From IMG/VR virus record IMGVR_UViG_3300045988_095676, positions 26,969-90,968 of that record: a DNA stretch of 64,000 bases; one strand, 5' to 3'. Positions 3,667 through 62,553 of this stretch are shown in pieces; the stretch's first letter is position 1, and each line of letters begins with the position of its first letter. The translations under genes and the position numbers were made by a program. The notes beneath the pieces were generated by a model that made no database searches, was not told the origin of the DNA, and saw only the letters and a program-made list of their open reading frames with translations. The stretch is from a virus.

Positions 3667-4323
3667 TCACTTCATTACTGTCCTTACCAACTTAGAAACA
3701 GCTTGTGTGATAGTCCACCTGATGTTAGCATTAACATTGATAGTCTGAGGAGTACCGTTTGCATCCAAGTTGATTACCTCCTTGTCTATTTCCAAGAACG
3801 GATCACCTGCTGTCTGGGTAATAACCGTATTAGCTGTCTGACCACCGGCGGCCGTCACCTTAAGAGTATTTACCAGATCATTTACATCAGCGTTTTCTGG
3901 AATACCGGAGAATACGATACTGAAAGCAAATCCCCCTGTTGCACCAGGGTCGTCGGCAATAACAGCACCGTTATTGGTAGCCTTGCCTGCTGCCTGATAG
4001 GAGGCTGGTATTTCCAGCGTCAGAGGATGAGACTCGTCTGGAGTTAAGGAGAACGTTAATTTAGTTGAGTTACTTGTGCCGTTGATTGTTACAGTACCAC
4101 CTTCTTTCCCTACAGATGCAGTAGGATCTATTTTTACGAACTCAGCTACCGGAGCTTGGTTTATGGTAGCACTTTTCTTAACATCCCCGGATTCGGCACC
4201 AAATTCTACTTGTAACGTACGCTGTACACGACCTTCGTATTTTTCACCTGATACGGTAACTGCCTGATCACCGTCACCTGATCCCGGATTGAAGGTTACA
4301 AAACCTATTTTCATTTCTGCCAT
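3667..4323 (-). CDS. Ig-like (BACON/Big-like) repeat surface or virion-decoration protein
   Basis: Thr/Gly/Asn-rich beta-strand repeats (GDQAVTVSG, GGTVTINGTSN, GTPQTINVNANIRWTI) resemble Bacteroidetes BACON/Ig modules. It is the only - strand gene in the first 54 kb. Confidence 0.45.
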   Translation of the reverse strand: MAEMKIGFVTFNPGSGDGDQAVTVSGEKYEGRVQRTLQVEFGAESGDVKKSATINQAPVAEFVKIDPTASVGKEGGTVTINGTSNSTKLTFSLTPDESHPLTLEIPASYQAAGKATNNGAVIADDPGATGGFAFSIVFSGIPENADVNDLVNTLKVTAAGGQTANTVITQTAGDPFLEIDKEVINLDANGTPQTINVNANIRWTITQAVSKLVRTVMK

Positions 4324-4439
4324 GATATAAATGATTTTTTTAGTTAATTAATATCTTGACAAATATAGTTTTATTATACGGAAATCCTATTATTGATCTT
4401 CATAAATTAAAACTATCTTTATCCCAAAATAAGACAATT

Positions 4440-5554
4440 ATGAGAAGAAGATTTTTTAACAAAATAGGGGGGGGTATTTACCTACTGATAATTTTATAGT
4501 TTTTGATAAATCTGTATCAGATCCGGCTAATATAACAATAAGCGAAGACAGTGATTTTTTAAATAGGTTGATTACAAGTGGCTTTTATAGAGTTCTTTGC
4601 AAGAGCGCTATGGGAGGAGGAGAGGTTTTTGTATGTAGGTTGAAGGAAGACAACAGCAATTTGTATCTTGATGGTAGTCAGGCTAATCTTACCGGACCAG
4701 AAGGTGATGTGATGGTCGTTTTCTTAGAATTTTGGTATAAATGGTATAAGGTGGATGATAATAGATTTCTTTATCATTTTGCTGATCATGATATTGACGG
4801 CACTTACATCCATGTCCCGGAATCTCTTGTTGGAGCATATAAAGGATATGTATCTTTGAATGGATTATATAGCTGGAGTGGTGTTAGTCCTACAACTTCA
4901 AAATCATTCAACGATTTTGAAGGTTATGCGAAAGCGCGTGGTACCGGGTTTCAGATGATAGATTTTCAACAACATTGCGTGATTGCTATGATGTTGTATG
5001 CTAAGTACAAAACACGTAATATTCAATCTGTATTAGGATTAGGTGGCGCAAATAATAATCCGGCTACAACAACGGGAAGCAGCAACGCAACCGGCGGTGC
5101 GGATACCAAAAACGAAAGTTCAAAGTACGTTTGCGGCTTAGGTTTGGAAGGGGTTTTTGGTGGTATCTATGAATGGGTTGAAGGTGTAGAAATCAACAAC
5201 CGAGTTTGGAAAATCACCGACCCAGACGGATCGACTCGCAATGTGAACGCCGGAACTTCCAATGGCTGGATAACGAATATCGCAGCGGAAAACGGTCCGT
5301 TTTTCGATGTGGTGCCGACAAATGTTGGCGGTAACGATTCCATGCATTATTCAGATTACTATAGTCAGACATCGAGCAACTCCATTGTTTTGGCGCGCTC
5401 CTATAGCGGCTCGGATACGAGTAGTGGCGTGGCGTATGCGTATGCGTCTCGCAACGCGTTGAGCGCGAGTTCGTACTTCGGTTCGCGTCTTGCTTTCCGT
5501 GGAATCATATCCGAGGTGGCTCCAGAGCAGTTCAAAAAATTACCTGTATTATAA
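4440..5554 (+). CDS. fibre/receptor-binding-like protein with C-terminal FGE/C-type-lectin-like fold, interrupted at a G8 run (needs -1 shift)
   Basis: ATG 4440 encodes MRRRFFNKIGGG. The frame of ORF 4568..5554 is open back to 4460 through G8 at 4467-4474. GLGLEGVFGGIYEWVEG and the terminal ...GSRLAFRG resemble the GNVWEW / GFR motifs of FGE-type lectin folds. Confidence 0.5.
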
Positions 5555-5600
5555 TATCATATTTTAATTGTTTTTAAATTGTATTGTTTATATTATTGCG

Positions 5601-5608
5601 TATATTTG
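5601..5608 (+). promoter_or_regulatory. Bacteroidota-type -7 promoter box TATATTTG
   Basis: Matches TAnnTTTG, 26 nt upstream of ATG 5634. Confidence 0.45.
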
Positions 5609-5633
5609 CGATACAATTTAAAAACATTATATC

Positions 5634-6056
5634 ATGAAGATAAACTTTTTAAGCAGTAAAACCTATGTAGGTTCTAAGACAAAAGAAGCTAAAATCAGAA
5701 AGCTTTCTATTAGCAAAGATCGGATTATGACCATATCGGTGGACAATCTGAAATGGATGGGTATCGAAGATGCGGTTATTATTGGTATGGAAGAAGGAGC
5801 TGAGTTTAAAGGGGTGTTGGATTCTAATTTGTATATAGCTCCTTCTAAGGTAGAAGACGAGAGATCGTTTTTATTAAATAAACAAGGTGAGAAATATAGA
5901 CGTATTTACCTCCGTGATGTACTGTCTTCGTTAGGTTGGGATATCGGTGATAATCAGTATGCGGTTTATGATATTGTGAAGGTTAAGGACGAAGATGGTG
6001 TGTTCTGCCTGGTTCCGAGAGAGATTAAGAAAAGTAAGTTTGAGAAAGGAGAATGA
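5634..6056 (+). CDS. hypothetical protein
   Basis: ORF track. Promoter-like box upstream. Confidence 0.65.
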   Translation: MKINFLSSKTYVGSKTKEAKIRKLSISKDRIMTISVDNLKWMGIEDAVIIGMEEGAEFKGVLDSNLYIAPSKVEDERSFLLNKQGEKYRRIYLRDVLSSLGWDIGDNQYAVYDIVKVKDEDGVFCLVPREIKKSKFEKGE

Positions 6057-6057
6057 T

Positions 6058-6936
6058 ATGGTACAAGATATTGATATAAAATCCAAACGAATATTATTGT
6101 TTGATTTTGATGGAACGCTTATAGAAACCGCTTCTGGGAATACGTTCGCTACAGACTTGACAGATATGAGGATTAAGATGGATGTGGTGAATAAGGCTCT
6201 TGACCTCATGCAGGAGAACGGTGTTAAGGTATTTGCTATCGTAAGCAATCAAGGAGGAGTAGAAGCTGGGTTTGTTTCTGGAGCTGATATTGAAGCTAAG
6301 ATAGAATACGTACTGAGGTCCGTACATGATCTGGCGGTAAAGAGAGGTATAAGAGGCGTCCTATATGAAAAAAGGTTGTGTTATTCAAATGACGAACAAA
6401 ATCCGATGAGGAAGCCTAATACGGGCATGATTGATGATATTCTTATGAAGTGTAAAGACACGGTAATGCGCGGTATGAACTTCAGTCAACTTAAGGGATG
6501 TTCGTTGATGGTCGGGGACGCCAGTGGTCTGCCAGGGCAGTTCTCTGATTCGGATAAGGTATGTGCCTATAATTCCGGTATTAACTATATGGATATTACT
6601 ACATTTTTGGATAAAGATCTTGATTTAGAATATGTATTGTCCAAAGAACATACAAGTGAAGGAATAGTTATTCTAAACAACGATCATATATATATCCTTG
6701 AAAATCCATATGGGGTTGGTCTTAATATAAAAATCACTTTAAAAGATTTTTATAAGATTGAAACCGATGATGGAAAAACTGCAACCGTAGATGATGTGCT
6801 GAATATAAGGATTGATAAAGATCAGAATTTTAATTCATATAGTGATGTTATAAAAATAGAAACATTAAAAGACGGTAGTATCAAATATACAAGCTTATAT
6901 CATGAAAGTAAAGAAAACAGCGATAGTTTATCATAA
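6058..6936 (+). CDS. HAD-superfamily phosphatase (polynucleotide 3'-phosphatase / GmhB-like) with unknown C-terminal domain
   Basis: HAD motif I LLFDFDGTLIE, motif II VSNQGG, Lys motif MRKPNTGM, motif IV MVGDASG. ATG 6058 lies 1 nt after the upstream stop. No kinase P-loop. Confidence 0.7.
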   Translation: MVQDIDIKSKRILLFDFDGTLIETASGNTFATDLTDMRIKMDVVNKALDLMQENGVKVFAIVSNQGGVEAGFVSGADIEAKIEYVLRSVHDLAVKRGIRGVLYEKRLCYSNDEQNPMRKPNTGMIDDILMKCKDTVMRGMNFSQLKGCSLMVGDASGLPGQFSDSDKVCAYNSGINYMDITTFLDKDLDLEYVLSKEHTSEGIVILNNDHIYILENPYGVGLNIKITLKDFYKIETDDGKTATVDDVLNIRIDKDQNFNSYSDVIKIETLKDGSIKYTSLYHESKENSDSLS

Positions 6937-7858
6937 ATCGGATTTAGATGGCGTTGTATCGGCAGCCATCGCAACCATGTACGAAAACAGTAAAAACAAG
7001 GATGTTGTTTATATCCCGTATTCGTATGAAGATGATGTTAAGAAAGTTGTTGACCAAGTACGTGACTTAGATGTTGTTTATGTTCTTGACGTGTCTTTTG
7101 GAGCCGATTCTAAAACTGTTTTCAAAAAGTGGCTTGATGAAGGGAAGAGCCTGATGTGGATAGATCACCACAAGGGAATTATTGAGGACAGTAAGACATG
7201 GGGGTTCGTAGTTCCAGGGTTGAGGAGGGTCGGTGTCGGTGCGTGCGCTCTGGCTTCGGACCTGCTTATGGGGAAGGTGCCGGCGATCGTCCGATGCCTG
7301 TCAGACTACGATGTGTGGAATAAAGAATCTGGCTTAGGCTGGGATACGGTAGTAGCTGTCCAGTATGCCTTGAGATCAAAAATAAGACTCAATGTATTGA
7401 TTGCATTGTCGTATTTATATGATCACTTTAAAGAAAACATGAAAGACAATGAAATTGATCTTATTTTTTATGATCTTGCTAAAGAAGGACGTGCTATAAT
7501 TAATTACATGGCTTGTAAAAACGAAGATGAGGTAAGTAGGTACTCGTTCGAAGCTTACGTCGACGAGGTTAAGGTTATGGCTATGAATACCGCTGAATTT
7601 AGCTCTAAGGTATTTGATTCTCTTACACCGGACTGGTTAGACGGTAGAAAAATTAAAGCCCTGATGCCATTTTGTATCATGCCATGTGGAAAAGTTAGGT
7701 TCTCTCTTTACGAATGCGTAGAAGACAGCGTAGATTGCTGTGAGGTAAGTAAGAGATTCGGTGGTGGAGGACATGCTGGTGCTGCTGGATTCGTTATAGA
7801 CGTATCAAGTGACCAGTTTAAGGACTTCCTTGAAAGTAAAAAACTTTTATCGAAATGA
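6902..7858 (+). CDS. DHH/DHHA1-family phosphoesterase (NrnA/RecJ-like)
   Basis: Motifs HKSDLDGV, DVSF, WIDHHKG (DHH) and GGGGHAGAAGF (DHHA1 GGGH). Confidence 0.8.
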   Translation: MKVKKTAIVYHKSDLDGVVSAAIATMYENSKNKDVVYIPYSYEDDVKKVVDQVRDLDVVYVLDVSFGADSKTVFKKWLDEGKSLMWIDHHKGIIEDSKTWGFVVPGLRRVGVGACALASDLLMGKVPAIVRCLSDYDVWNKESGLGWDTVVAVQYALRSKIRLNVLIALSYLYDHFKENMKDNEIDLIFYDLAKEGRAIINYMACKNEDEVSRYSFEAYVDEVKVMAMNTAEFSSKVFDSLTPDWLDGRKIKALMPFCIMPCGKVRFSLYECVEDSVDCCEVSKRFGGGGHAGAAGFVIDVSSDQFKDFLESKKLLSK

Positions 7859-8226
7859 AGCGTGAATTATATCAGTTCTATCCGGAAGTCTATCCTTTTA
7901 ATCTGTGGATATACGTAGGAAAAGATGTATCTGGCATGGTAGAATGTTTCAATAACGATTTTAGTTACGTAGATAATAGCAAGGCTGTAACTGTATCCGT
8001 TCCATACGGAGGGTGTAAATTAAATCCTAATACGGGATTTTTGATATGGTTTCTTAATAAGAAAATAATTGATTTTGAAACAGTTTGCCATGAAGCATCC
8101 CATGTTTCTACTGAAGCTTTTAATTTCTTAGGAGAAGAAGTAAAAAACTTCAGAACCATTCTCGTATCTCAATGGATGGATAGGGAGAAAGTGCGAGGAA
8201 GTAAAGATCGGAATAGCCGAAGATAA
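7855..8226 (+). CDS. small protein with HExxH motif (possible minimal zinc metallopeptidase)
   Basis: CHEASHVSTEA contains HEASH. ATGA overlap with the DHH gene. The functional call is weak. Confidence 0.4.
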   Translation: MKRELYQFYPEVYPFNLWIYVGKDVSGMVECFNNDFSYVDNSKAVTVSVPYGGCKLNPNTGFLIWFLNKKIIDFETVCHEASHVSTEAFNFLGEEVKNFRTILVSQWMDREKVRGSKDRNSRR

Positions 8227-8267
8227 ACTAATATGGGAAAGTAAATAATTACCGTCGTAAAATAAGT

Positions 8268-8300
8268 ATGGGGAACTTTGGATAGGTTCCCCATATTTTT
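8268..8300 (+). terminator. intrinsic terminator
   Basis: 9-bp stem atggggaac/gttccccat, loop tttggatag, then ATTTTT. Confidence 0.7.
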
Positions 8301-38327: not shown

Positions 38328-38379
38328 GGCGCGAATTGCCTATCTTTGTGCTATTATTAATCAAAAAAAATATAAGCAC

Positions 38380-38658: not shown

Positions 38659-39736
38659 GATAGATATAAGAAGGATATTCAAGACCTCTAAACAAGTTAT
38701 GGAAGAGGCGTATGAGAATATCTTGAAATACAGGCGGGGAGAGCTTATCCCCGCTAAAACCGGATACGATTATATTGATGAGGCTTTGCTTGGAGGTATT
38801 TTCCCTCAGCATGCTATTGCCATAGGAGCCCGGCCATCTGTAGGTAAATCGTATGTGGCCCAAAAGATATTGGAAAATGTGATGAATCCGATGATCAACC
38901 CGCAAGCAGAAGATTATTTTCTTGTTAATTGCGAGTTCGAAATGAATCCTCAAGATCTTCTTCTTCGTAGAATGAGCCAGGATATGAAAAAGCGGGCTCC
39001 TGAAATATTAAGAAGGCAAGATTCTAATACAGTAGAAGAGATGAGGATGTTTGAAATCCTTCAAGGTGAAATCAGAAATAATATAATATACATCGATGCT
39101 CCGTGTACGGTAAAAGAGTTTGAGGCGGCTGTGTATCATATAGCTACCAAACATAAAGACAAACGTCTTATAATATTTAAAGTCGATCATATTGCTTTGA
39201 TAAAAAGAATGGGATTAGATCCTAAGTCGGCTATAGATGATTTGGTGGCGGTTATGAATGAGGCTAAATTAGTATATAAAAACATATTTTTCCTCATCAT
39301 ATCCCAATTCAACAGAGAGATAGAAGGAAGGATAAAAAGTCCACAAGAGCAGCCTCCGCGTCTTTCTGATTTTTACCAATCTGATACACTGGGTCAGTTA
39401 TGTACGTTAATGATAGGTTTGCATAATCCTCGTCGGTACGGGCTGGATAAGTATATGATATTTGGGAAAGACTGGTATCAGACTCTTGATCGGTTTAAAA
39501 CTGAAAACAAAACATCATTCAGAACAGCCGGACTGGTGTTTCATCATATACTGAAAGTAAGGCAGGTTAGCATGGAAGAGCTTACTAACACAATCCACCC
39601 AGAGATTCTGCCAGGACATGGATGGATGTACGGGGAGGGCGGGACGAAGTTCGTGAATCCCAACCAGCCGCCGACGCCGCCCAAGCTCTATACTGTGGAA
39701 GACGTTACGGATAATCAAGAACAGTCAGTATATTAA
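38627..39736 (+). CDS. DnaB-like replicative helicase (RecA-like C-terminal domain only)
   Basis: Walker A GARPSVGKS, Walker B-like IFKVDHIALI, SQFNREIE. No DnaB N-terminal domain. Confidence 0.75.
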   Translation: MTKMQEEIANRIDIRRIFKTSKQVMEEAYENILKYRRGELIPAKTGYDYIDEALLGGIFPQHAIAIGARPSVGKSYVAQKILENVMNPMINPQAEDYFLVNCEFEMNPQDLLLRRMSQDMKKRAPEILRRQDSNTVEEMRMFEILQGEIRNNIIYIDAPCTVKEFEAAVYHIATKHKDKRLIIFKVDHIALIKRMGLDPKSAIDDLVAVMNEAKLVYKNIFFLIISQFNREIEGRIKSPQEQPPRLSDFYQSDTLGQLCTLMIGLHNPRRYGLDKYMIFGKDWYQTLDRFKTENKTSFRTAGLVFHHILKVRQVSMEELTNTIHPEILPGHGWMYGEGGTKFVNPNQPPTPPKLYTVEDVTDNQEQSVY

Positions 39737-39742
39737 AAAGGT

Positions 39743-41008
39743 AATAAAATTGAAATTTCAAATAGTAAAATTGATTGATGAGATTGGTTGAAAAACATAT
39801 TATTAAAGATAACAGATTTGAAGATATTTGCCTCAAATCAGGATTGCTATATAATTATGTCTTGTATAATGCGCGTAAAGGTATCTTCAATAAAGAATAT
39901 CTGAATGAATATGAATTTTCAACCAAACTTTGTAGAGAAAATCAATTTGATTTCAGGAATTTGCCCACTTCTGTTTCTCAACAAGTAGTTGGCCAAGTTT
40001 TTAAAAATATAAAATCATGGATTAGACTCAAGAAGGATTTTGAAAACAATCCTTCCAAATACGATAATTGTTGTCCTCATCTACCTTCGTACAAGAAAGG
40101 CAAGAAACAGAACATGGTTGTGTTCACAACTTCTGCTTGTAGGCTAAAGAAGGATGGTTGTATTCATTTTGTTAAAAATATAATTCAACCAATTAAAACT
40201 GAAATAGGAGATAGTAAATTATGTCAGGTTAGAATCATTCCACAATCTACATGCTATGTGGTTGAAGTAATTTATGAAAAGAAAGAACATAATCTAAGTC
40301 TTGATAAGGATAATGTTCTTTCGATTGATTTAGGATTGAATAATTTATGTTCATGTATCAGCAATGCCGGATTGGTTCCTTTCATTGTAAACGGGCGGAT
40401 TATGAAATCTTTTAATCAGTGGTACAATAAGAGGAAAGCTAAGTTAATGTCTTATGTTGGAGGTAAGGGTACTTCTGAAAGACTTAGACAGCTAAATAAT
40501 TATAGGAATTTTTGGATAGAAGACTACATCCACAAGGTTAGTCGATATATTGTCAATTATTGTATTACTAACAACATTGGTAGTATCGTAATAGGTTTAA
40601 ATAAAGGATGGAAACAAAAGATTAATCTTGGAAAGAAGATTAATCAAAAGTTTGTTGAAATACCTTTTTCAAGACTTATAGACAAAATATCCTATAAATG
40701 TAAGTTGGTAGGTATCAGCTTTCAAATTAATGAAGAATCCTATACATCAAAGGTTGATCATTTAGCTTTTGAGAAATTAGGGAAGCATGATGTTTACTTA
40801 GGCAAAAGAAAGAAACGTGGATTATTCCAAAGCTCAGTTGGAAAGTTGTTAAATGCGGATATCAATGGAGCTATTGGGATAGGTAGAAAAGTATTCGGTG
40901 ATTCATTTGTAAACATGATAATCGATAGTGGGTTTGCGTTTAACCCGATTAGAGTAAACATTTTGTAATATAGATGTGAATTTAATGAATAAAATTTAAA
41001 ATTTTAAT
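39743..41008 (+). mobile_element. solo tnpB insertion (IS200/IS605-family remnant without tnpA)
   Basis: The tnpB gene is bracketed by imperfect AT-rich direct repeats AATAAAATTgAAAtTT (39743-39763) and AATAAAATTtAAAaTT (40988-41008). It is lower in GC than its neighbours, and there is a palindrome ttgaaatttcaa at the left edge. Confidence 0.5.
39778..40968 (+). CDS. tnpB: TnpB-like RNA-guided-nuclease family protein (OrfB), RuvC triad present, zinc finger absent
   Basis: RuvC-I SIDLGLNN, RuvC-II EESYTSK, RuvC-III NADINGAIGI. There are no CxxC pairs between II and III. Confidence 0.8.
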   Translation: MRLVEKHIIKDNRFEDICLKSGLLYNYVLYNARKGIFNKEYLNEYEFSTKLCRENQFDFRNLPTSVSQQVVGQVFKNIKSWIRLKKDFENNPSKYDNCCPHLPSYKKGKKQNMVVFTTSACRLKKDGCIHFVKNIIQPIKTEIGDSKLCQVRIIPQSTCYVVEVIYEKKEHNLSLDKDNVLSIDLGLNNLCSCISNAGLVPFIVNGRIMKSFNQWYNKRKAKLMSYVGGKGTSERLRQLNNYRNFWIEDYIHKVSRYIVNYCITNNIGSIVIGLNKGWKQKINLGKKINQKFVEIPFSRLIDKISYKCKLVGISFQINEESYTSKVDHLAFEKLGKHDVYLGKRKKRGLFQSSVGKLLNADINGAIGIGRKVFGDSFVNMIIDSGFAFNPIRVNIL

Positions 41009-43278: not shown

Positions 43279-43309
43279 TTTTTTTATCAACAATTAAATT
43301 TTAAAAGTT

Positions 43310-54511: not shown

Positions 54512-54558
54512 ACAACAATCCCCAACCATACAATAGGCGTACGGTTGGGGATTGTTGT
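54512..54558. terminator. bidirectional terminator at the convergence of + and - strand blocks
   Basis: Perfect 16-bp stem acaacaatccccaacc/ggttggggattgttgt with a 15-nt loop. Confidence 0.75.
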
Positions 54559-55293
54559 CATATCGTAAAATTAAGTGTTTTTTCTAATATCAGATATTCA
54601 GTATGAACTTTACTTCCGCCATCATTTATCAAGTCCAAATTAATATAAGCTGTATATGATACATGATGATCACCAGGAGCAAGACGTTTCATATCTGATA
54701 AGAACATAGAATTTAAACCTTGGCCAGACCATGATTCTGGATATGGCAAAGGTTTAAAGTCGGCGTCTGTACATCTTACAACCCAAGTAAGATTAGGATC
54801 TGCCCTAACTATTCTATCATGAGGTCCATCAATTACAAGATCTGGCATCTCATATTGGTAACTATCATAATTAAGGACAATAGGATCACCAAAGTTTACA
54901 CCGTATATAGCAGCAGGTGGAGTAAAGCTTGTTATTAAAAAGGTTCTATTAATCCTATTGGTTGTTCTTAGCGTAAACTCATCAGGTGCTATCACACTTA
55001 CTCTAAATCCATAATAAGGAGAGGTTGTTAAAGCAATAGCAAGAACCACCGAATCCTGTTCAAGCAATTCCTCTGTCGTATCAACCTGACTATCGATCTC
55101 TTGCCTATCTTCCATTGGAACACCGCCTTGGACACTTATGGAATCCAGCCGTTCTTTTTTAGACAGAAAGATAAATTGCCCGCCCTGTGGAATGGTGCCT
55201 ACTTTCTTTCCTTCTACGATTACCCCCCCCTATACAATCGCTAACTATCTTATACTCATATAGTTTAGCATTATTTTCAAATCTTCTTCTCAT
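54558..55293 (-). CDS. MRRRF-family fibre-like protein interrupted at a G8 run (needs +1 shift)
   Basis: ATG at 55293 encodes MRRRFENNAKLYEYKIVSDCIGGG. The coding-strand G8 is plus-strand C8 at 55223-55230. The frame of ORF 54558..55115 is open up to 55229. Confidence 0.5.
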
Positions 55294-55297
55294 AATT

Positions 55298-55916
55298 TCA
55301 TAAAATTAATTCGGTAAAGGGGCGGACATAACGTGGATTACTCCTTGTACTTGTATCCAAATGATCTCCTTGGATGTTTATATCATAATACCACGAATAG
55401 GTAAATTGTGTAGATTGAGTGGATGTCCACATTTTATTACTCATTATCGTACCTCCTACCATTAAAAGGCATTCGTTTATTTCATTCGCATACAATGATA
55501 TCAAAAAAAAACTCTCCGGCGCCACCTACATATCCATTTTGACCATTTTTAAATAAATAGCTATTAGCTTTATTAAAAGCGTAATTTTCATTACTGGTAT
55601 CATATTCAAGATACGCATTCTGATTTTCACGCCCCCAATAATCCTTTTTAACGGTCTTCATATAAGAACTATTTTGTGCAAATACATTGTCTACTCTTCC
55701 ATCCTTACCCCAACTAAATGTGCCAATATATTCGGTGGCTATAACAAAACACACTTTATCTACAAGAGCTATTCCATTGCATAGATCATTGGAATATCCT
55801 TTATTAGACCAATTTTCTTTTGTATATAATCCTCCATCTACATGTTGGATGTATATGCCTTTATTGATTATAAGCGAGGGATTTACCCCCATCCCTATTT
55901 GAAATCTTCGTCTCAT
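55298..55916 (-). CDS. MRRRF-family fibre-like protein with C-terminal DUF1566 domain, interrupted at a T9 run (needs +1 shift)
   Basis: ATG at 55916 encodes MRRRFQIGMGV. ORFs 55482..56003 and 55298..55525 join across plus-strand A9 at 55503-55511 to give ...GAGEFFLISLYANEINECL...MWTSTQSTQ...YVRPF, a contiguous DUF1566 pattern. Confidence 0.5.
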
Positions 55917-56130
55917 GATTTTTGTTTGCAAGATAGCAATAATTGACAACATAAAAGAAACCGGTTCTCTATCATCTCTGACTGAGAACCGGTAAGAAAA
56001 CAATTTCAGAAAAAATTAAACCTACATAATCTTTCAAGTAAGAACAAAAAAACGTACAATCTACTCTTTGACGATGCTAATATAACATATTGGAATCATA
56101 CAAAAACAATGCAAGTCCGATATTCTTCGT

Positions 56131-59100
56131 CTATTTGTAACTAACGTCATCGTCTCCTTCCGAATCAGGAGTAGCGCCGATGAAGAACATCATTGACTTG
56201 TTGTTCGTCTGCTGCCACCAATTATAGGCGCGCGCTACGTCTTCCGGCGTCTTGATATTATACCATTGTTTGATAAACGTCTGTTTGGCGAGTTGCCTAA
56301 ATAACTTAGACTCTCCCTTGTATGTACCGGATGTTACTTTATCAAGTGAATAATTCCTAAGATCGGTAAGATCCTTCAGTTTTCGCCCCATAACAAACGG
56401 ATCGTTAATGATATCTACCACGTTAAGCTCCATAATAAACGGCATCTGTGAAGCTATTTCGTTTATGGTTCTGAATCCGACATAGGATCCAAATTGAGTA
56501 AGCCAACTTTCTTCGTTTTCATCATCATCACGCCATCCGGCAAGAAGCATAGATACGGCCTGCATGATAAGGAACGTGCCGGCATAGACACTGAGGCGTT
56601 TGAGATTAGTTTTTTCTACCTCATTCATATTGTCTTTATTTTCGTTCCAGGCATCTATGATGTTTTTCATACCAGACTCGGAAGCCAGGCTAAATGTTTT
56701 GGCTATCATATTCTTTAACGTAATTGACAACCCTTCCTCTTCTTGCATTGTCTGGAAATTGAAGCCACGTCTTTTCCACAGACGTTGAGCTGCCAGCACC
56801 AGCCAGCCTCGGTGGGCGGTCATGAACCTGGCTATCCAGTTGCGCGATGCGGCAGTTCGGTTTTCTTCATTCAAAGATCCGTTACATATCTGCGACAAGC
56901 TACGGACTTGATTCCTGGTTATAGCCATCTGGGTTTCAACTTCCTCAACAGTAACACCCGATCCCGGCTTTACAACCACCTTTCCATCCACGACGTCTAC
57001 CATACTCCATAAAGTACGATCTTTTAATGCGTTCCATTCTCTTTTTATGGTACTCTGTTCTTTATTGCGTTCTTTTTCCATCTTGAAATCTTGGAACGTG
57101 TAGAACCGGCCTTTGTAATAACGAACATTGTCCATAGTAGCAATCATAACCTGCGGATCAAGAGGGTAGTTCAGGATTTCCATAAAAGCATACATAGGCG
57201 AACGCATTAAGGTCCTGGCCGCTCTATTGTATCCGGCACCATACATACGATTTCGGATATTGAATATCCCCATTCTCTCACCTATGACATATAATTTGCT
57301 TTTCCTATCTATGTCTCCGGTTTCTGCTATACAAGATGGCGCAAGACGGGAAAACTCAGCCGATGCGTATTTAAGGGAATCTTTGCTTATATACTGTCCT
57401 ACGGCTGATTCCATGATGAGGTTGATATGGCCTGTCAGGGCGCCGGTAGCTGCCACAAACGGAGACAGTGCCAAGTTCATAACCGACATAAATCTTTCAA
57501 CAGCCATCATAATTCTTGTAAGGTCTACCGTATATCCTCCGATGTTCACCGTAAGTTTTTTGGTGTTCATCCTAATGCCATAATAATGATCGTTGAAGAA
57601 GTCCCTGAACATCTGATATGCTTGGGTTGCTTCAGCCTTTTTACCACCTTCAAATTGTTTATTTAGTAACATCTGCTCCAGTCCTTGGGCAAGCTCTATA
57701 GACTTCTGCTTTTCGTTGTATAACGATGATTGCATCATAAGCATCGAATAAGAGTAGCCAAAATCGTGAGATACATCATCTTGGTTCTCCAATTCATATA
57801 TGTAGTATTTAGGTATAGACCTAAGCCTGTCTTCTGGATCATACACTTCTCCTTGCCTGGTCTTACCATATAGAGAATCGTCTACTCTGTCCAGGCACAG
57901 ATCTGATACAAAATTACGAACCGTATTTTTGAAGTTAATACCCAATCCTTCTACACGTTCTATATCTTGTTTGGATATCTGTGGAATAGCATACAGGTTC
58001 GGGCTCTGCTCTTTGTATAGATCAAGGGATTGTCTTTTTATTTCCTTGAGTTTTTGAATCATATTCCACTGCTCTACGTTTTTAGTAGCAACCTCATTAC
58101 CGTCAGCATCATACTTGATACCAAAGTCATTGAAATACGATTCGTCACGATACAGGCTTTTCTTAGGCATTCGATGACCATACCCATGATCTTTTACATA
58201 ATCAGGATTACGACCGCTATTTTCGGCTTCAGATTCAGCCACCCATGCCCTTGCAGGGTCGAAAGACAAGTACGATATGTCCATGCCATAATCTTGGGTG
58301 GATGTACCGTTTTGTACGTCCTTAACCATTTGCGCCACATCTATCTCACCTCGACCGATTTTGTCGATCATAGCTGCATATCCGGTAGGCGCCATGCGTT
58401 TATAGTACGAAAAAACCTGGCTTCTGGCAAATTCATTAACAATAGCATTAGCTTCTTCTACGCCCTCTTCTCTTGTATTATTTAAAAATAAGCTGGCCAT
58501 CTTAGCATTAACAGCATTCCTGAAATCTCTACCGTCTAATTCTTTGCTTATACCAAGCTTTTCTGACAGGTAGTTGGTTTCAGATACGGTAAACAGATAT
58601 CGGTTATCAGCAGCCTTAAACAGCTTATCCCTTAAAGCCTGAATCCTTTTTGCTTTCTTCGCCGTAGTATGACGTTGTACGAACTTCCATTCCACTTCCT
58701 TGGAGTCAGCAAGAGCATTTAAATAAGACTGATTTACTTCGTTTTCAGCCTTACTGCTTTTAGTAAGGTACTTATCAATATCTTCAAGACCCACCATCTT
58801 AGCATAATCTATCAAAATAGCGTAATCGGCTTCAATAGCTTCAGATGCGGCCCTAAAAGCATCTCTTTCGGATGAGGTAAATGTCGCTTCGTTAATTTCT
58901 CCGATATCAGCCACATCGCGATTGTTTCCGATTATTTCCTTGATAATAGCCTTATTTTTTTCTATATCTTTCACAATAGAATCCACGTCAGTCGCATCTC
59001 TATCACTTGTCGTAGAACTAATGATATCATGCGCCATTTTAAGATACGAAGCCTTGTTATTTGATTCGGTACGTGCCGACTGTTCTGATTCTACATCATT

Positions 59101-62100
59101 CCAAAACCGATCGTTGAATGACAGGTGACCTCCCAACATAAGTGTCTTCAGCGCAGCTTCTCCTCCAGACTCGCTCTGAATCGTTCTTAATTTTTGCAAA
59201 AACGATTCTGATACGGCATTAGTGGCATTATTTGATTCCTTTCTCCAAACTTCATTTATAGCTTGTATTTCTTTGGCCATCTTAAGTTGGTCGCCGGTTT
59301 TTTCCACTCTCCTGGTTCCTACATATATGTATTCTGAAGCTGCTTCCTTACGTTGTTTACGAAGCAGTCCTTCTTCTTCGTAATTGCTGCTTTTAAAATA
59401 GGCAACCTCATCAAAATTACCACCGCTATCAATAAAAGGCTGCCTCAATATCCGTTTTTGCCGGGATAGGGCATTAAGATATTCTTTGGTTGTTTGAGAA
59501 ACCGGATACCCTAATTCTTCTTCAGCCTTTTTGTATATGGATTCCATTCTTGTGGCATAACTTTCGCTAAATTCCAATTCCGAATTTTCAGCATCCCACT
59601 TTTCCATCTGCTCTGTATAGATCTTTTCCTGCTCGATGGTAAAAATATCGGTATTAACCCTATCAGACGATGGTTTGAATTTAGCGTTTTCAGTAACCGT
59701 ATTTCCATCCTTGTCAACTACTTCTCTTTTAAATACGTAATTACGGTTATTGTCAACCACATCACCAATTTCTTCTTCTGATATCTCTATGTTCATGGCA
59801 GTCGCAAACGCTCGCATCTGCGCCAGCTTCTTATTACGATCGTATTTAGCCATATCAAGAGCACTACGAAGGTAATTAGAAGTTTTGCCGTCTACTTTCT
59901 GAAGCAGTTTTTCAAATTCAGATTTGTTAAAACCATGCTTTTTCGCATATGCCAGGAAATCGGATATGGCGGGCTGGGCATTCACCATCGCATTGTAATT
60001 GTCTTTGGCAATCATAGCTCCAAGAGCGTTATTGAACGGACTGGAAGAATGCTCTAATATACCGAACCACCTACTTATCCAAGAAACATCGTGTTGAACC
60101 TTGTCGAAAAATTCTTTTACTCTCTTTACCTTATCTGCCGGCACATGAAGTTCGTTCATTAACTTATCAAGCAACGTACTTTCATCAAGGTCTTGTACTG
60201 ATTTAATATCAGACTGAATACCATTGATGTCGGCAATGACGGTATTGATCCTATTTGTATAATCCTGCTTTTCACGTTCATCAAATTCGGTACTTCTGTT
60301 ACGGATATATCCTCGAAGATCGTTCATGATCGGAAGAACCTGATTGTTGATAATATCTACGTTCTTTCGATCATTGGTATTGAAGTGAAGCTTACCGTCT
60401 TTGGTATCACCATGAAGGATGGTGTTCACCACATTGCTTAAGTATCTGACCTGAGCTTCGGCTGTAGAGATCATGCTGTTCATGGCAGCCGCCATCTCAT
60501 TCTTGTCTATTTCGGTCTCTACCTTATTTATCTTATCTTCTATGGTCTTAAGCTGAGCAAGGGTCATAGACGTAGTTACAGCCCTATCAGAGCTTATCTG
60601 ACGTAAGTCTCTTAATGTTTTCCTTAATGCCAGGATCTTAGACTCAAGAAACTTGTTCTTGTTCATAGAAGAAAGGGAGTATAATGTAAAGTCATTATCC
60701 TTTAACAGAGAGGTGTCAAATCCTTTATCTATGTCAGTAATGGCAAGATCACGAATGTTTTTAATAACGTTATTCAAATCTTGTCTTTGGGTTGATAAAG
60801 CTGATTTAAGCCAGCTTACGATTCCAGAGAAAAGCTGCCGGACGCGCCCCAGGAAGGAGGTGGGCTCTACCGGCGCCTGTGCTGTGCCGGTCTGCATCTC
60901 CCTGGCGAGGATCTTTCCAAGAATTTCTCTCCTAACAGCATTATCAAGCTCAGCTCCTTCATATACTTTACCGTATGTATTATAATACTGACCTGCATAT
61001 TGGTTCCACTCTTCCGTACCTTCCACATCTTGCAGAACAGCCTCAACAGCATTCTGATCTCTGTATGCCTCTACAAGGAAGTGGGCTGTTTCTTCTACTA
61101 AATCAGATAAAGTAGCATCTTCACCAACTGCTATTACGTTATTGGCAATATCCGCCAATGCCTTAGCAGAAGGTTCGTGCCCGTATTTGGTTTGGTACTT
61201 CTCTATATAATCGGTCATACCTATGACACTAACGCCAAGAGTTTTCAGTATCTCGACAATAGAATTTCGTTGGTCACGTTCCTGCCTGCTATAATCTGAT
61301 ACGATCTTAGCTTTAGTATCAGCATAAAGATCGTTGTCTTCTAATATGAATGAAACTACAAGCGCATCAAAATGATCGTACTTGGCGTCCAATTCATTGT
61401 ATCTTCCTGACTTGAGATCGTTCTTTATCTGTTCCCTACTAATCCTTTCCGTTCCTCCGGTGGCGAGTCTCATAGTTACCTTACTGTTATCCAACGAGCT
61501 TATGGTTATCATACCTTGGTCGTTCATGGAAACATCGGAACCAAAATGATTACGGAGCTCGGTGTAGGATAAGGCTGAATTGAAAAGTCTAATTTGTCCT
61601 GTATGACCTTCTCCTGTAAGATAATAGCTTCTTGTTTCAGGATCGAATATCTTAGATCCGGACAAAAGACCTTTCTTTATAAGGTAGTTAATTATACCAC
61701 CTTTTGTTGATAAAGAAGTAGAAGCAGAAGCGGTCATGACCGGTATAAAAGATTTGGGATTATTAAGAACATACTTTCCAGCCTTGTAAGTAATGTCTGC
61801 CACGCCATCCACGGCAGATTCTTGAACGGTGCCGGATAAGAATCCTATTCTAATATCATTCCCGCCAGAGCGAAGAGCTTCTCCGTAATCTTCAAATAAT
61901 TGATTACGATCATTCATGAAAAACAAACGAGGCTCTCCGGTCTGATACGTTACACCCACAGGATTAGAATCTGTCTGTGGTAACTCCTCTGGGCTAAATA
62001 TCTTAAGACCGTCTTTTATAACCATATAATTAACACCCTTATCCTGTACCATAGATACGGGAGTAAAGTCCGAAGATATAGCATCTTGTAGATACTGCCC

Positions 62101-62553
62101 GGCGTCTATTCCCGGTCCTTCCGGTACGGAAATACTTGACGGGACCATAGCATCTACCAACATAATATTATCACCCAGATCTTGGCTGTAGAATCCAAAG
62201 CCTGATTCTTGGATTTCATAAGGTGCATCTGATTTTGACACAAGAACAGGGTTACTCATCTTAGAAGCCTTATCCAGCACCCTTTCTCTATAGGCTTCCG
62301 GAATAAGATCGATGTTGGATTTCACCTTATTGTAGGCCGGTTTATTAACAGGTACATTCCTTCTCCAGTCGCCAAAAGCCTTCAAGAACTTATTAGAAAA
62401 TACGGTTTTAAAAACAGTAGTAGCCCGTTCCCTGTTCTCCATAAGAGGAATAGATGCTATCTTATCAAACAACATAGACCTGTCCCCTGATCTGGTAGAG
62501 ACAGAAACAACTTTCTTTTTATTATCTCTTTTAATAATACACGTTGATGTCAT
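56131..62553 (-). CDS. giant (2140 aa) virion-associated protein of unknown function
   Basis: Single uninterrupted ORF. Long coiled-coil-like central part, hydrophobic segments near the C-terminus (ALSPFVAATGALTG, TFLIMQAVSMLLAG). Located in the structural block next to fibre-like genes. Confidence 0.75.
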   Translation of the reverse strand: MTSTCIIKRDNKKKVVSVSTRSGDRSMLFDKIASIPLMENRERATTVFKTVFSNKFLKAFGDWRRNVPVNKPAYNKVKSNIDLIPEAYRERVLDKASKMSNPVLVSKSDAPYEIQESGFGFYSQDLGDNIMLVDAMVPSSISVPEGPGIDAGQYLQDAISSDFTPVSMVQDKGVNYMVIKDGLKIFSPEELPQTDSNPVGVTYQTGEPRLFFMNDRNQLFEDYGEALRSGGNDIRIGFLSGTVQESAVDGVADITYKAGKYVLNNPKSFIPVMTASASTSLSTKGGIINYLIKKGLLSGSKIFDPETRSYYLTGEGHTGQIRLFNSALSYTELRNHFGSDVSMNDQGMITISSLDNSKVTMRLATGGTERISREQIKNDLKSGRYNELDAKYDHFDALVVSFILEDNDLYADTKAKIVSDYSRQERDQRNSIVEILKTLGVSVIGMTDYIEKYQTKYGHEPSAKALADIANNVIAVGEDATLSDLVEETAHFLVEAYRDQNAVEAVLQDVEGTEEWNQYAGQYYNTYGKVYEGAELDNAVRREILGKILAREMQTGTAQAPVEPTSFLGRVRQLFSGIVSWLKSALSTQRQDLNNVIKNIRDLAITDIDKGFDTSLLKDNDFTLYSLSSMNKNKFLESKILALRKTLRDLRQISSDRAVTTSMTLAQLKTIEDKINKVETEIDKNEMAAAMNSMISTAEAQVRYLSNVVNTILHGDTKDGKLHFNTNDRKNVDIINNQVLPIMNDLRGYIRNRSTEFDEREKQDYTNRINTVIADINGIQSDIKSVQDLDESTLLDKLMNELHVPADKVKRVKEFFDKVQHDVSWISRWFGILEHSSSPFNNALGAMIAKDNYNAMVNAQPAISDFLAYAKKHGFNKSEFEKLLQKVDGKTSNYLRSALDMAKYDRNKKLAQMRAFATAMNIEISEEEIGDVVDNNRNYVFKREVVDKDGNTVTENAKFKPSSDRVNTDIFTIEQEKIYTEQMEKWDAENSELEFSESYATRMESIYKKAEEELGYPVSQTTKEYLNALSRQKRILRQPFIDSGGNFDEVAYFKSSNYEEEGLLRKQRKEAASEYIYVGTRRVEKTGDQLKMAKEIQAINEVWRKESNNATNAVSESFLQKLRTIQSESGGEAALKTLMLGGHLSFNDRFWNDVESEQSARTESNNKASYLKMAHDIISSTTSDRDATDVDSIVKDIEKNKAIIKEIIGNNRDVADIGEINEATFTSSERDAFRAASEAIEADYAILIDYAKMVGLEDIDKYLTKSSKAENEVNQSYLNALADSKEVEWKFVQRHTTAKKAKRIQALRDKLFKAADNRYLFTVSETNYLSEKLGISKELDGRDFRNAVNAKMASLFLNNTREEGVEEANAIVNEFARSQVFSYYKRMAPTGYAAMIDKIGRGEIDVAQMVKDVQNGTSTQDYGMDISYLSFDPARAWVAESEAENSGRNPDYVKDHGYGHRMPKKSLYRDESYFNDFGIKYDADGNEVATKNVEQWNMIQKLKEIKRQSLDLYKEQSPNLYAIPQISKQDIERVEGLGINFKNTVRNFVSDLCLDRVDDSLYGKTRQGEVYDPEDRLRSIPKYYIYELENQDDVSHDFGYSYSMLMMQSSLYNEKQKSIELAQGLEQMLLNKQFEGGKKAEATQAYQMFRDFFNDHYYGIRMNTKKLTVNIGGYTVDLTRIMMAVERFMSVMNLALSPFVAATGALTGHINLIMESAVGQYISKDSLKYASAEFSRLAPSCIAETGDIDRKSKLYVIGERMGIFNIRNRMYGAGYNRAARTLMRSPMYAFMEILNYPLDPQVMIATMDNVRYYKGRFYTFQDFKMEKERNKEQSTIKREWNALKDRTLWSMVDVVDGKVVVKPGSGVTVEEVETQMAITRNQVRSLSQICNGSLNEENRTAASRNWIARFMTAHRGWLVLAAQRLWKRRGFNFQTMQEEEGLSITLKNMIAKTFSLASESGMKNIIDAWNENKDNMNEVEKTNLKRLSVYAGTFLIMQAVSMLLAGWRDDDENEESWLTQFGSYVGFRTINEIASQMPFIMELNVVDIINDPFVMGRKLKDLTDLRNYSLDKVTSGTYKGESKLFRQLAKQTFIKQWYNIKTPEDVARAYNWWQQTNNKSMMFFIGATPDSEGDDDVSYK

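Follow-up and report, generated by a model that had tools for sequence, protein, structure and literature searches.

The window, by which we mean the whole stretch of 64,000 nucleotides (64 kb) analysed here, carries on its minus strand a gene, locus A, whose start codon and conserved 15-nt leader are separated from an intact body of 221 codons by a shift of frame at a run of eight G residues. By its sequence, the window is that of an epsilon crAss-like phage; the region shares 94% identity with csAssE-Sib (OR575929.1, 151 kb, human gut), which has been placed in the proposed genus Epsilonunovirus of the epsilon crAss-like phages (PMC11054128). Locus A is one of three genes in the window that begin with MRRRF (Table 1). 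Around it, MRRRF genes close a long structural, late-oriented arm, where they adjoin the gene of a 2140-aa virion protein and converge on the replication module. A perfect inverted repeat lies immediately 3' of the locus A stop codon, between the convergent transcription units, and is a likely candidate for a bidirectional terminator. This repeat was not scored by the terminator scan, and the promoter and terminator scan as a whole stayed at or below shuffle expectation. A search for a promoter or upstream motif shared by the three MRRRF genes found only about 20 nt around the ATG in common.

Table 1. Features of the MRRRF loci and their surroundings, in positions of the window
Feature	Position	Strand	Remarks
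Locus B, paralogue, MRRRFFNKIGGG, G8 at 4467-4474, body in -1 frame	4440..5554	+	C-type-lectin-/tail-protein-like body
Locus A, start codon and conserved 15-nt leader ATGAGAAGAAGATTT (MRRRF)	55279..55293	-	common to the 4440 gene; one mismatch in the 55916 gene
Locus A, poly-G tract, G8 (plus-strand C8)	55223..55230	-	encodes GG(G) of S-[ND]-C-x-G-G
Locus A, truncated 44-aa OFF (G8) product	55159..55293	-	MRRRFENNAKLYEYKIVSDCIGGG, 20 out-of-frame residues and TAA
Locus A, gene body, 221 codons from GTA and stop, intact	54558..55229	-	+1 frame
Gene 3, tandem paralogue, MRRRFQIGMG..., interrupted tract GGGATGGGGG (55886-55895)	55298..55916	-	ATG 55916
Virion structural protein, 2140 aa, upstream neighbour	56131..62553	-	structural arm
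Perfect 15-bp inverted repeat CAACAATCCCCAACC ... GGTTGGGGATTGTTG, 15-nt loop	54513..54557		read from sequence
Intergenic A/T runs of 7-8, length-variable	38363-38370; 43279-43285; 56046-56052		related contigs

From its ATG at 55293-55291 on the minus strand, locus A reads MRRRFENNAKLYEYKIVSDCIGGGNRRRKESRHHSTGRAIYLSV and stops at the TAA at 55161-55159, the tract beginning 63 nt into the coding sequence. The frame of the body reads GGVIVEGKKVGTIPQGG... and is shut upstream by a TAG at 55232-55230. An earlier note on this DNA, made from the letters alone, had placed the ATG at 55293, the C8 at 55223-55230, the TAA at 55159-61 and the limit of the open body frame at 55229, all of which are correct. 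Leader and body join if the tract loses one G or gains two, and the gene is in frame at G7, G10 and G13, with a full product of 245 aa; out of frame, the product is cut to 24 aa at G9 and to 44 aa at G8. With its tract of G8 as assembled, locus A is OFF in the window. The earlier proposal that a +1 shift, or G7, joins the two parts holds as frame arithmetic, but G7 is not the natural ON length: this is G10, in which IGGG runs on into VIVEGKK, and the window is two G short of it.

The partner gene at 4440, locus B, is as it had been described, with an ATG at 4440, a G8 run at 4467-4474 and a downstream frame that needs one more G. In the sequence context of the window, the in-frame allele of locus B is G9 (or G6), which leaves the window one G short, and the commonest length in that same context is the OFF length G8. 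Across four sequence contexts the tract ranges from G5 to G11, with deviations in both directions. The body of locus B matches phrog_5302 (tail protein) and PDB 5VF4, the C-type-lectin variable protein TaqVP of a retroelement. The gene is missing altogether from csAssE-Sib, and alignment with csAssE-Sib 4819-5004 shows it as about 1.1 kb of inserted DNA.

Gene 3 is an MRRRF paralogue beyond the two that the note had recognized. A T9 run (plus-strand A9, 55503-55511) breaks its frame in the window, at a point that is T8 in the closest relative; the T8 form is in frame in 42-46 relatives, and T7 or T9 is found in about ten. Its G5 (55886-55890) also varies, with G4, G6, G8 and G9 among the relatives. 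All three MRRRF genes of the window are therefore out of frame.

The G8 runs of loci A and B are the sole G/C runs of at least 7 in the 64-kb window. Their number is not significant alone, as 13 of 100 dinucleotide shuffles reach two. Both lie no more than 70 nt from the identical 15-nt start, which has three close copies in the window, and the four matches observed were reached in none of 100 shuffles; the placement of both runs after this start is significant beyond chance. The two paralogous N-termini place the run at the same IGGG position, as the note had it, both reading ATA-GGG-GGG-GG. GGG makes up 15% of the glycine codons in the long ORFs of the window, and the use of GGG by both tracts is likewise beyond chance at a significant level. 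In 1.63 Mb of related DNA, examined as genome slices of about 21 kb, 38 of the 44 G runs of at least 7 are tracts of MRRR genes, 37 of them within 90 nt after the MRRR start and one at a contig end.

We compared the tract of locus A over about 90 public contigs, made up of 74 IMG/VR loci and 20 independent ENA contigs, the latter mostly SPAdes assemblies and every one from a different assembly. The G run is preserved at the IGGG position in homologues, and near-identical genomes differ in how long it is, in line with the note. The IMG/VR tracts are mostly G9 (27), G10 (21) and G8 (16), with G7 found twice and G6 and G11 once each; the frame is intact in 26 of these loci and shifted in 36. In the ENA set the lengths are G9 (7), G10 (5), G8 (4), G7AGG (2), G12 (1) and G9AGG (1), and out-of-frame alleles are found in Illumina/SPAdes contigs of high coverage (G9 at 39x, G9AGG at 150x). 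Assemblies of high coverage with the gene include ERZ826146 NODE_38 (150x), ERZ827150 NODE_106 (39x) and ERZ779874 NODE_535 (36x). In total, locus A is in frame in about 40% of the contigs. Contig pairs that differ at 1-15 of 1400 flanking bases carry different tract lengths. Fitch parsimony on a neighbour-joining gene tree of 49 taxa requires 21 length changes, against a mean of 20.9 for shuffled labels, and tract length is without phylogenetic signal. Interrupted 10-nt tracts (GGGGGTGGGG, GGGGGAGGGG, G7AGG, G9A) are in frame without exception.

Several side observations concern these alleles. Many public contigs are annotated with an identical short ORF of 44-45 aa. The contig L215 (IMGVR_UViG_3300045988_109117) terminates inside the poly-G tract, at G11, which is compatible with an assembly that broke off because the site is heterogeneous or of low quality. 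When the tract is G9 or G12, the body frame is open from a TTG two codons 5' of it (window 55231-55240), and the products of 226-227 aa that gene callers list for these alleles start with MYRGG(G)V (e.g., P0070); a leaderless protein may be made from the -1 state. In the G8 state of the window, the TAG blocks the TTG-started body frame.

Given that length modulo 3 sets the frame of locus A and that near-identical genomes differ in tract length, as in contingency loci, we contend that locus A is probably a slipped-strand contingency (phase-variable) locus of an epsilon crAss-like gut phage, and one of a family of genes that share the MRRR leader. Slipped-strand mispairing during phage DNA replication would add or remove G residues, with G7, G10 and G13 giving the full 245-aa protein (ON) and G8, G9, G11 and G12 ending translation after 24-44 residues (OFF). 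The change would be reversible within a population, and a family of at least five MRRR[FY] cassettes at variable spots of the genome would switch independently. The phage would likely gain by hedging its bets over an accessory protein of the virion surface, of adhesion or of host interaction.

The earlier note had pictured loci A and B as independently switchable fibre genes and had asked whether their run lengths segregate independently. Among 17 contigs that hold both loci, seven are OFF/OFF, four OFF/ON, three ON/OFF and three ON/ON. As all four combinations occur, loci A and B behave as independent switches, and this half of the proposal is borne out. The fibre half is not, as there is no direct match to such a protein and the data give hints only, namely an N-terminal domain linked to BACON proteins, the position at the end of the structural arm, the tail-protein match of locus B and a high pN/pS in the C-terminal half. 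These hints, together with the swapping of cassettes, suggest that locus A may encode an accessory surface or adhesion protein.

What the protein itself reveals is as follows. A profile search of 1.84 billion representatives delimits a domain at residues of about 8-80 of locus A (some 60 residues, beta), which is present two to four times within proteins of 650-1270 aa, several of them starting with MRRR. Those proteins carry BACON domains above the Pfam cut-off, so locus A shares its N-terminal domain with BACON-domain proteins (PF13004), a class known from crAss-like phages and Bacteroidales, whereas the 245-aa protein itself has no BACON domain. PEGA (PF08308) matches cover the strand-turn-strand that holds the tract in the relatives P0146 (19.7 bits) and P0163 (14.2 bits), both below the cut-off of 20.8; the 245-aa protein has no PEGA match. 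The tract encodes the GG of a conserved S-N/D-C-x-G-G-x-V motif and so cannot be taken for a free linker. For the fused protein, Pfam and PHROG scans gave no match and a profile search of PDB gave none that is meaningful. An AlphaFold2 model from a 27-sequence alignment is all-beta (pLDDT 63.5, pTM 0.42), and Foldseek with this model against BFVD returned a close sequence homologue only. Given this low confidence and the lack of a useful Foldseek match, no fold is assigned. A profile of the N-terminal domain, run against a set of 5.8 billion proteins, retrieved almost solely truncated OFF-state fragments and no deeper alignment.

The same switch could also serve another purpose. The internal-protein cassettes of T4 share an N-terminal targeting sequence, and by analogy the MRRR leader might be a tag for virion incorporation or capsid targeting, with the bodies behind it being ejected cargo or anti-defence proteins. 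Small unrelated bodies do follow one short conserved N-terminus, the genes lie directly 3' of that of the 2140-aa virion protein, and the body of locus A is without receptor-binding-protein homology. However, the conserved part of locus A is a domain of about 60 aa that is also found internally in BACON-domain proteins, and the body of locus B matches the C-termini of tail proteins, so we regard such a role as unlikely, and as a less favoured assignment than that of a surface or adhesion protein.

A different concern is whether the length differences are real. The tract might always be G10 (G9 at locus B), with long G runs miscalled in the window and in many public assemblies. The note had argued that no single systematic miscall explains both loci, one lacking a G and the other seeming to hold one too many. 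This argument fails for the window: measured against the natural ON lengths, both tracts are short (G10 to G8 at locus A, G9 to G8 at locus B), and under-calling could in principle explain both. Also, a homopolymer (T9) is what breaks gene 3, and none of the three MRRRF genes of the window is in frame, as an assembly poor at homopolymers would be expected to yield; most of the deviations delete G residues (G9, G8), and one contig stops exactly in the tract. The case against an artefact therefore rests on population data and on control homopolymers. A coding A9 run in a helicase gene is constant in 15 of 15 of the same contigs, and the length of three coding A7 runs is unchanged in 29 of 29, 26 of 26 and 8 of 8 contigs, whereas at intergenic A8 and T7 runs about half of the contigs differ in length. 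This contrast indicates that the assemblies resolve such runs and that length changes are purged where they are harmful; homopolymer slippage seems to be generally frequent in this phage lineage. Furthermore, out-of-frame lengths are found in SPAdes contigs at 39x and 150x, the longer G11 and G12 exist as well, the commonest length of locus B in one context is an OFF length with deviations both ways, and a consensus error would require the majority of reads to be wrong. Differences in consensus length could in principle be fixed mutations or a poly-G-specific assembly error. On balance, miscalling as the cause of the whole pattern is improbable, and we retain the reading of locus A as a contingency locus.

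Slippage may also be real in genes that are dispensable and being lost, in which case the polymorphism would be neutral pseudogenisation. About 58% of the contigs are OFF, pN/pS is about 1 among OFF alleles, and in csAssE-Sib the gene is replaced or absent: the gene at the position of locus A keeps MRRRFEN and then continues with an unrelated cassette without a G run. Two ENA alleles bear an extra truncation at codon 95, which shows that some decay occurs. The spread of G-tract lengths, with about half non-modal, resembles that of the neutral intergenic A8 run and fits relaxed as well as fluctuating selection. Against decay, the 64 alleles with a 221-codon body hold at least 248 mutations and no stop codon where 10.3 were expected (Poisson P ~3e-5), and no second frameshift was found among them. 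The body of locus A is under selection to stay open, a result weakened by pN/pS near or above 1. The pN/pS ratio between divergent allele groups is about 0.5 over the N-terminal half but reaches at least 1 over the C-terminal half, and it is about 1-2 among close alleles, which would agree with diversifying or relaxed selection acting on the distal part. The tract is retained in several paralogues and between allele groups whose adjacent codons have a pS of 0.72. Distant relatives encode the same Gly-Gly as GGC GGT or GGA GGT, without a homopolymer; given these codons and the rarity of GGG, the homopolymer is not imposed by the protein. The interrupted 10-nt tracts, moreover, are locked ON and never OFF. 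We consider decay quite improbable as the general explanation of what is seen at locus A, and continue with phase variation.

It is most improbable that ribosomal frameshifting or RNA-polymerase slippage expresses the out-of-frame alleles, with DNA length tuning the yield, since the required shift differs by allele (+1, -1), in-frame alleles are common and recoding is superfluous for explaining the data, even though transcriptional slippage is possible at long homopolymers, OFF alleles keep the body open, and the upstream TTG opens the body frame in G9/G12, from which the MYRGG products are called. A programmed frameshift or transcriptional slippage site had also been considered as a candidate and was rejected, with in-frame G10 being common, OFF alleles needing different shifts and no single direction being conserved.

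If phase variation is accepted for locus A, its relation to the other genes with the same start deserves consideration. Across the fetched loci, at least five unrelated bodies stand behind an MRRR[FY] start, and most of these genes have a G tract shortly after it; some have none, such as the csAssE-Sib cassette. Cassettes have been exchanged after the leader in csAssE-Sib and in the loci L066-L073. The gene at 3001-3693 of L037 (IMGVR_UViG_3300045988_129625) is a hybrid in which the gene-3 leader MRRRFQIGMG is fused to the locus A body VIVEGKK..., the body of gene 3 being deleted, which points to recombination of the tandem paralogues at their leaders or tracts. In another lineage, on the contig IMGVR_UViG_3300007797_000006, two further MRRRF genes (L245, 897-928; L377, 1458-1620) have G8 at other codon positions (MRRRFMSH-G8 and ...ESNR-G8-AKQV), and both are out of frame.

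Few viruses of the human gut are as abundant as the crAss-like phages, which persist for years beside hosts with phase-variable capsules. It can be speculated, tentatively and with odds that we would put at less than even, that epsilon crAss-like phages possess a dedicated modular phase-variation system, in which surface or adhesin cassettes combine an MRRR leader with an independently flipping poly-G tract, the leader and tract double as short homology for swapping or deleting cassettes, and the whole counters the phase-variable capsules of Bacteroidales. The part ascribed to leader and tract draws on the hybrid in L037 and on cassette boundaries directly after the leader or tract. If this is true, n cassettes per genome would give 2^n phasotypes, and the system might be the first of contingency loci in Crassvirales; our literature search turned up no account of poly-G, homopolymer or contingency loci in that group, and the published analysis of the csAssE-Sib genome does not mention homopolymers or frameshifts (PMC11054128). 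The contingency mechanism is already known in phages, and what is particular here is the architecture, a family of cassettes with a leader in common and a tract.

The closest known case is that of Campylobacter phages, for which hypermutable polyG tracts in receptor-binding-protein genes have been described (Sorensen et al., 2021, Cell Rep 35:109214, as cited in PMC10579305 and PMC12823448). As far as these citing papers describe them, both systems have G homopolymers in genes of a structural or host-recognition region, a frame set by length and several tracts per genome; the Campylobacter phages are characterized there by mixed ON/OFF subpopulations, whereas the crAss-like case is known from consensus variation between assemblies. 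Unlike in those phages, the crAss-like tracts lie just after the shared MRRR start of a cassette family, there is no sequence relationship and no homology to their receptor-binding proteins, and the lineages differ, a Bacteroidales-associated crAss-like podovirus here and a Campylobacter myovirus there. In T2 and T4, simple-sequence-repeat contingency loci with polymerase slippage, reversible frameshifts and bet-hedging have been reported, the repeats being enriched in non-essential or hypothetical genes and under-represented in tail-fibre genes (Gomez, Barrick and Waters, 2025, bioRxiv 10.1101/2025.10.21.683753). Those are mostly short A/T runs of at least 6 with experimental evidence, whereas the crAss-like loci have G tracts of 8-12 at one codon position across the family, with comparative evidence. 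Bacterial contingency loci with polyG/polyC tracts are known in Campylobacter jejuni, Neisseria and Haemophilus (PMC4965091, PMC5084427). They share with the crAss-like loci a G tract of at least 7 near the 5' end of the ORF, dependence on length modulo 3, independent switching and combinatorial phasotypes; the crAss-like tracts differ in being virus-borne and replicated by the phage replisome.

Other switches of tropism are the diversity-generating retroelement of BPP-1 and the invertible tail-fibre segments of Mu and P1. In csAssE-Sib and the Epsilonunoviruses, likewise, a diversity-generating retroelement targets a C-type-lectin receptor-binding protein (PMC11054128). The goal, rapid diversification of host-interaction proteins, would be the same for the poly-G loci, and the body of locus B is related to the 5VF4 fold class. 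Unlike in the retroelements of BPP-1 and csAssE-Sib, there is no template repeat or reverse transcriptase beside locus A (checked around 55 kb in the ORF list only) or locus B, and unlike in Mu and P1 there are no invertible repeats at the poly-G loci. Locus B was considered as a retroelement target and rejected, with no direct repeat of at least 40 nt in 4300-8300 and no reverse-transcriptase domain in its neighbours. Independently switching poly-G genes, if real, would be a third diversification device beside retroelements and cassette exchange. There is also a practical consequence, in that annotation pipelines split or drop such genes, and databases hold many fragments of locus A of 24-45 aa and 221-227 aa.

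In the remainder of the alignment between the window and csAssE-Sib, most gaps of 1-2 nt that would count as other frameshifts are alignment noise in divergent or intergenic DNA. A separate observation is a transposase-like ORF of 397 aa at 39775-40968 on the plus strand (phrog_506), which is an insertion in relation to csAssE-Sib, with the alignment gap around it at 39723-40994 of the window. This ORF is probably of the TnpB type, and TnpB genes are variably present among Epsilonunoviruses (PMC11054128).
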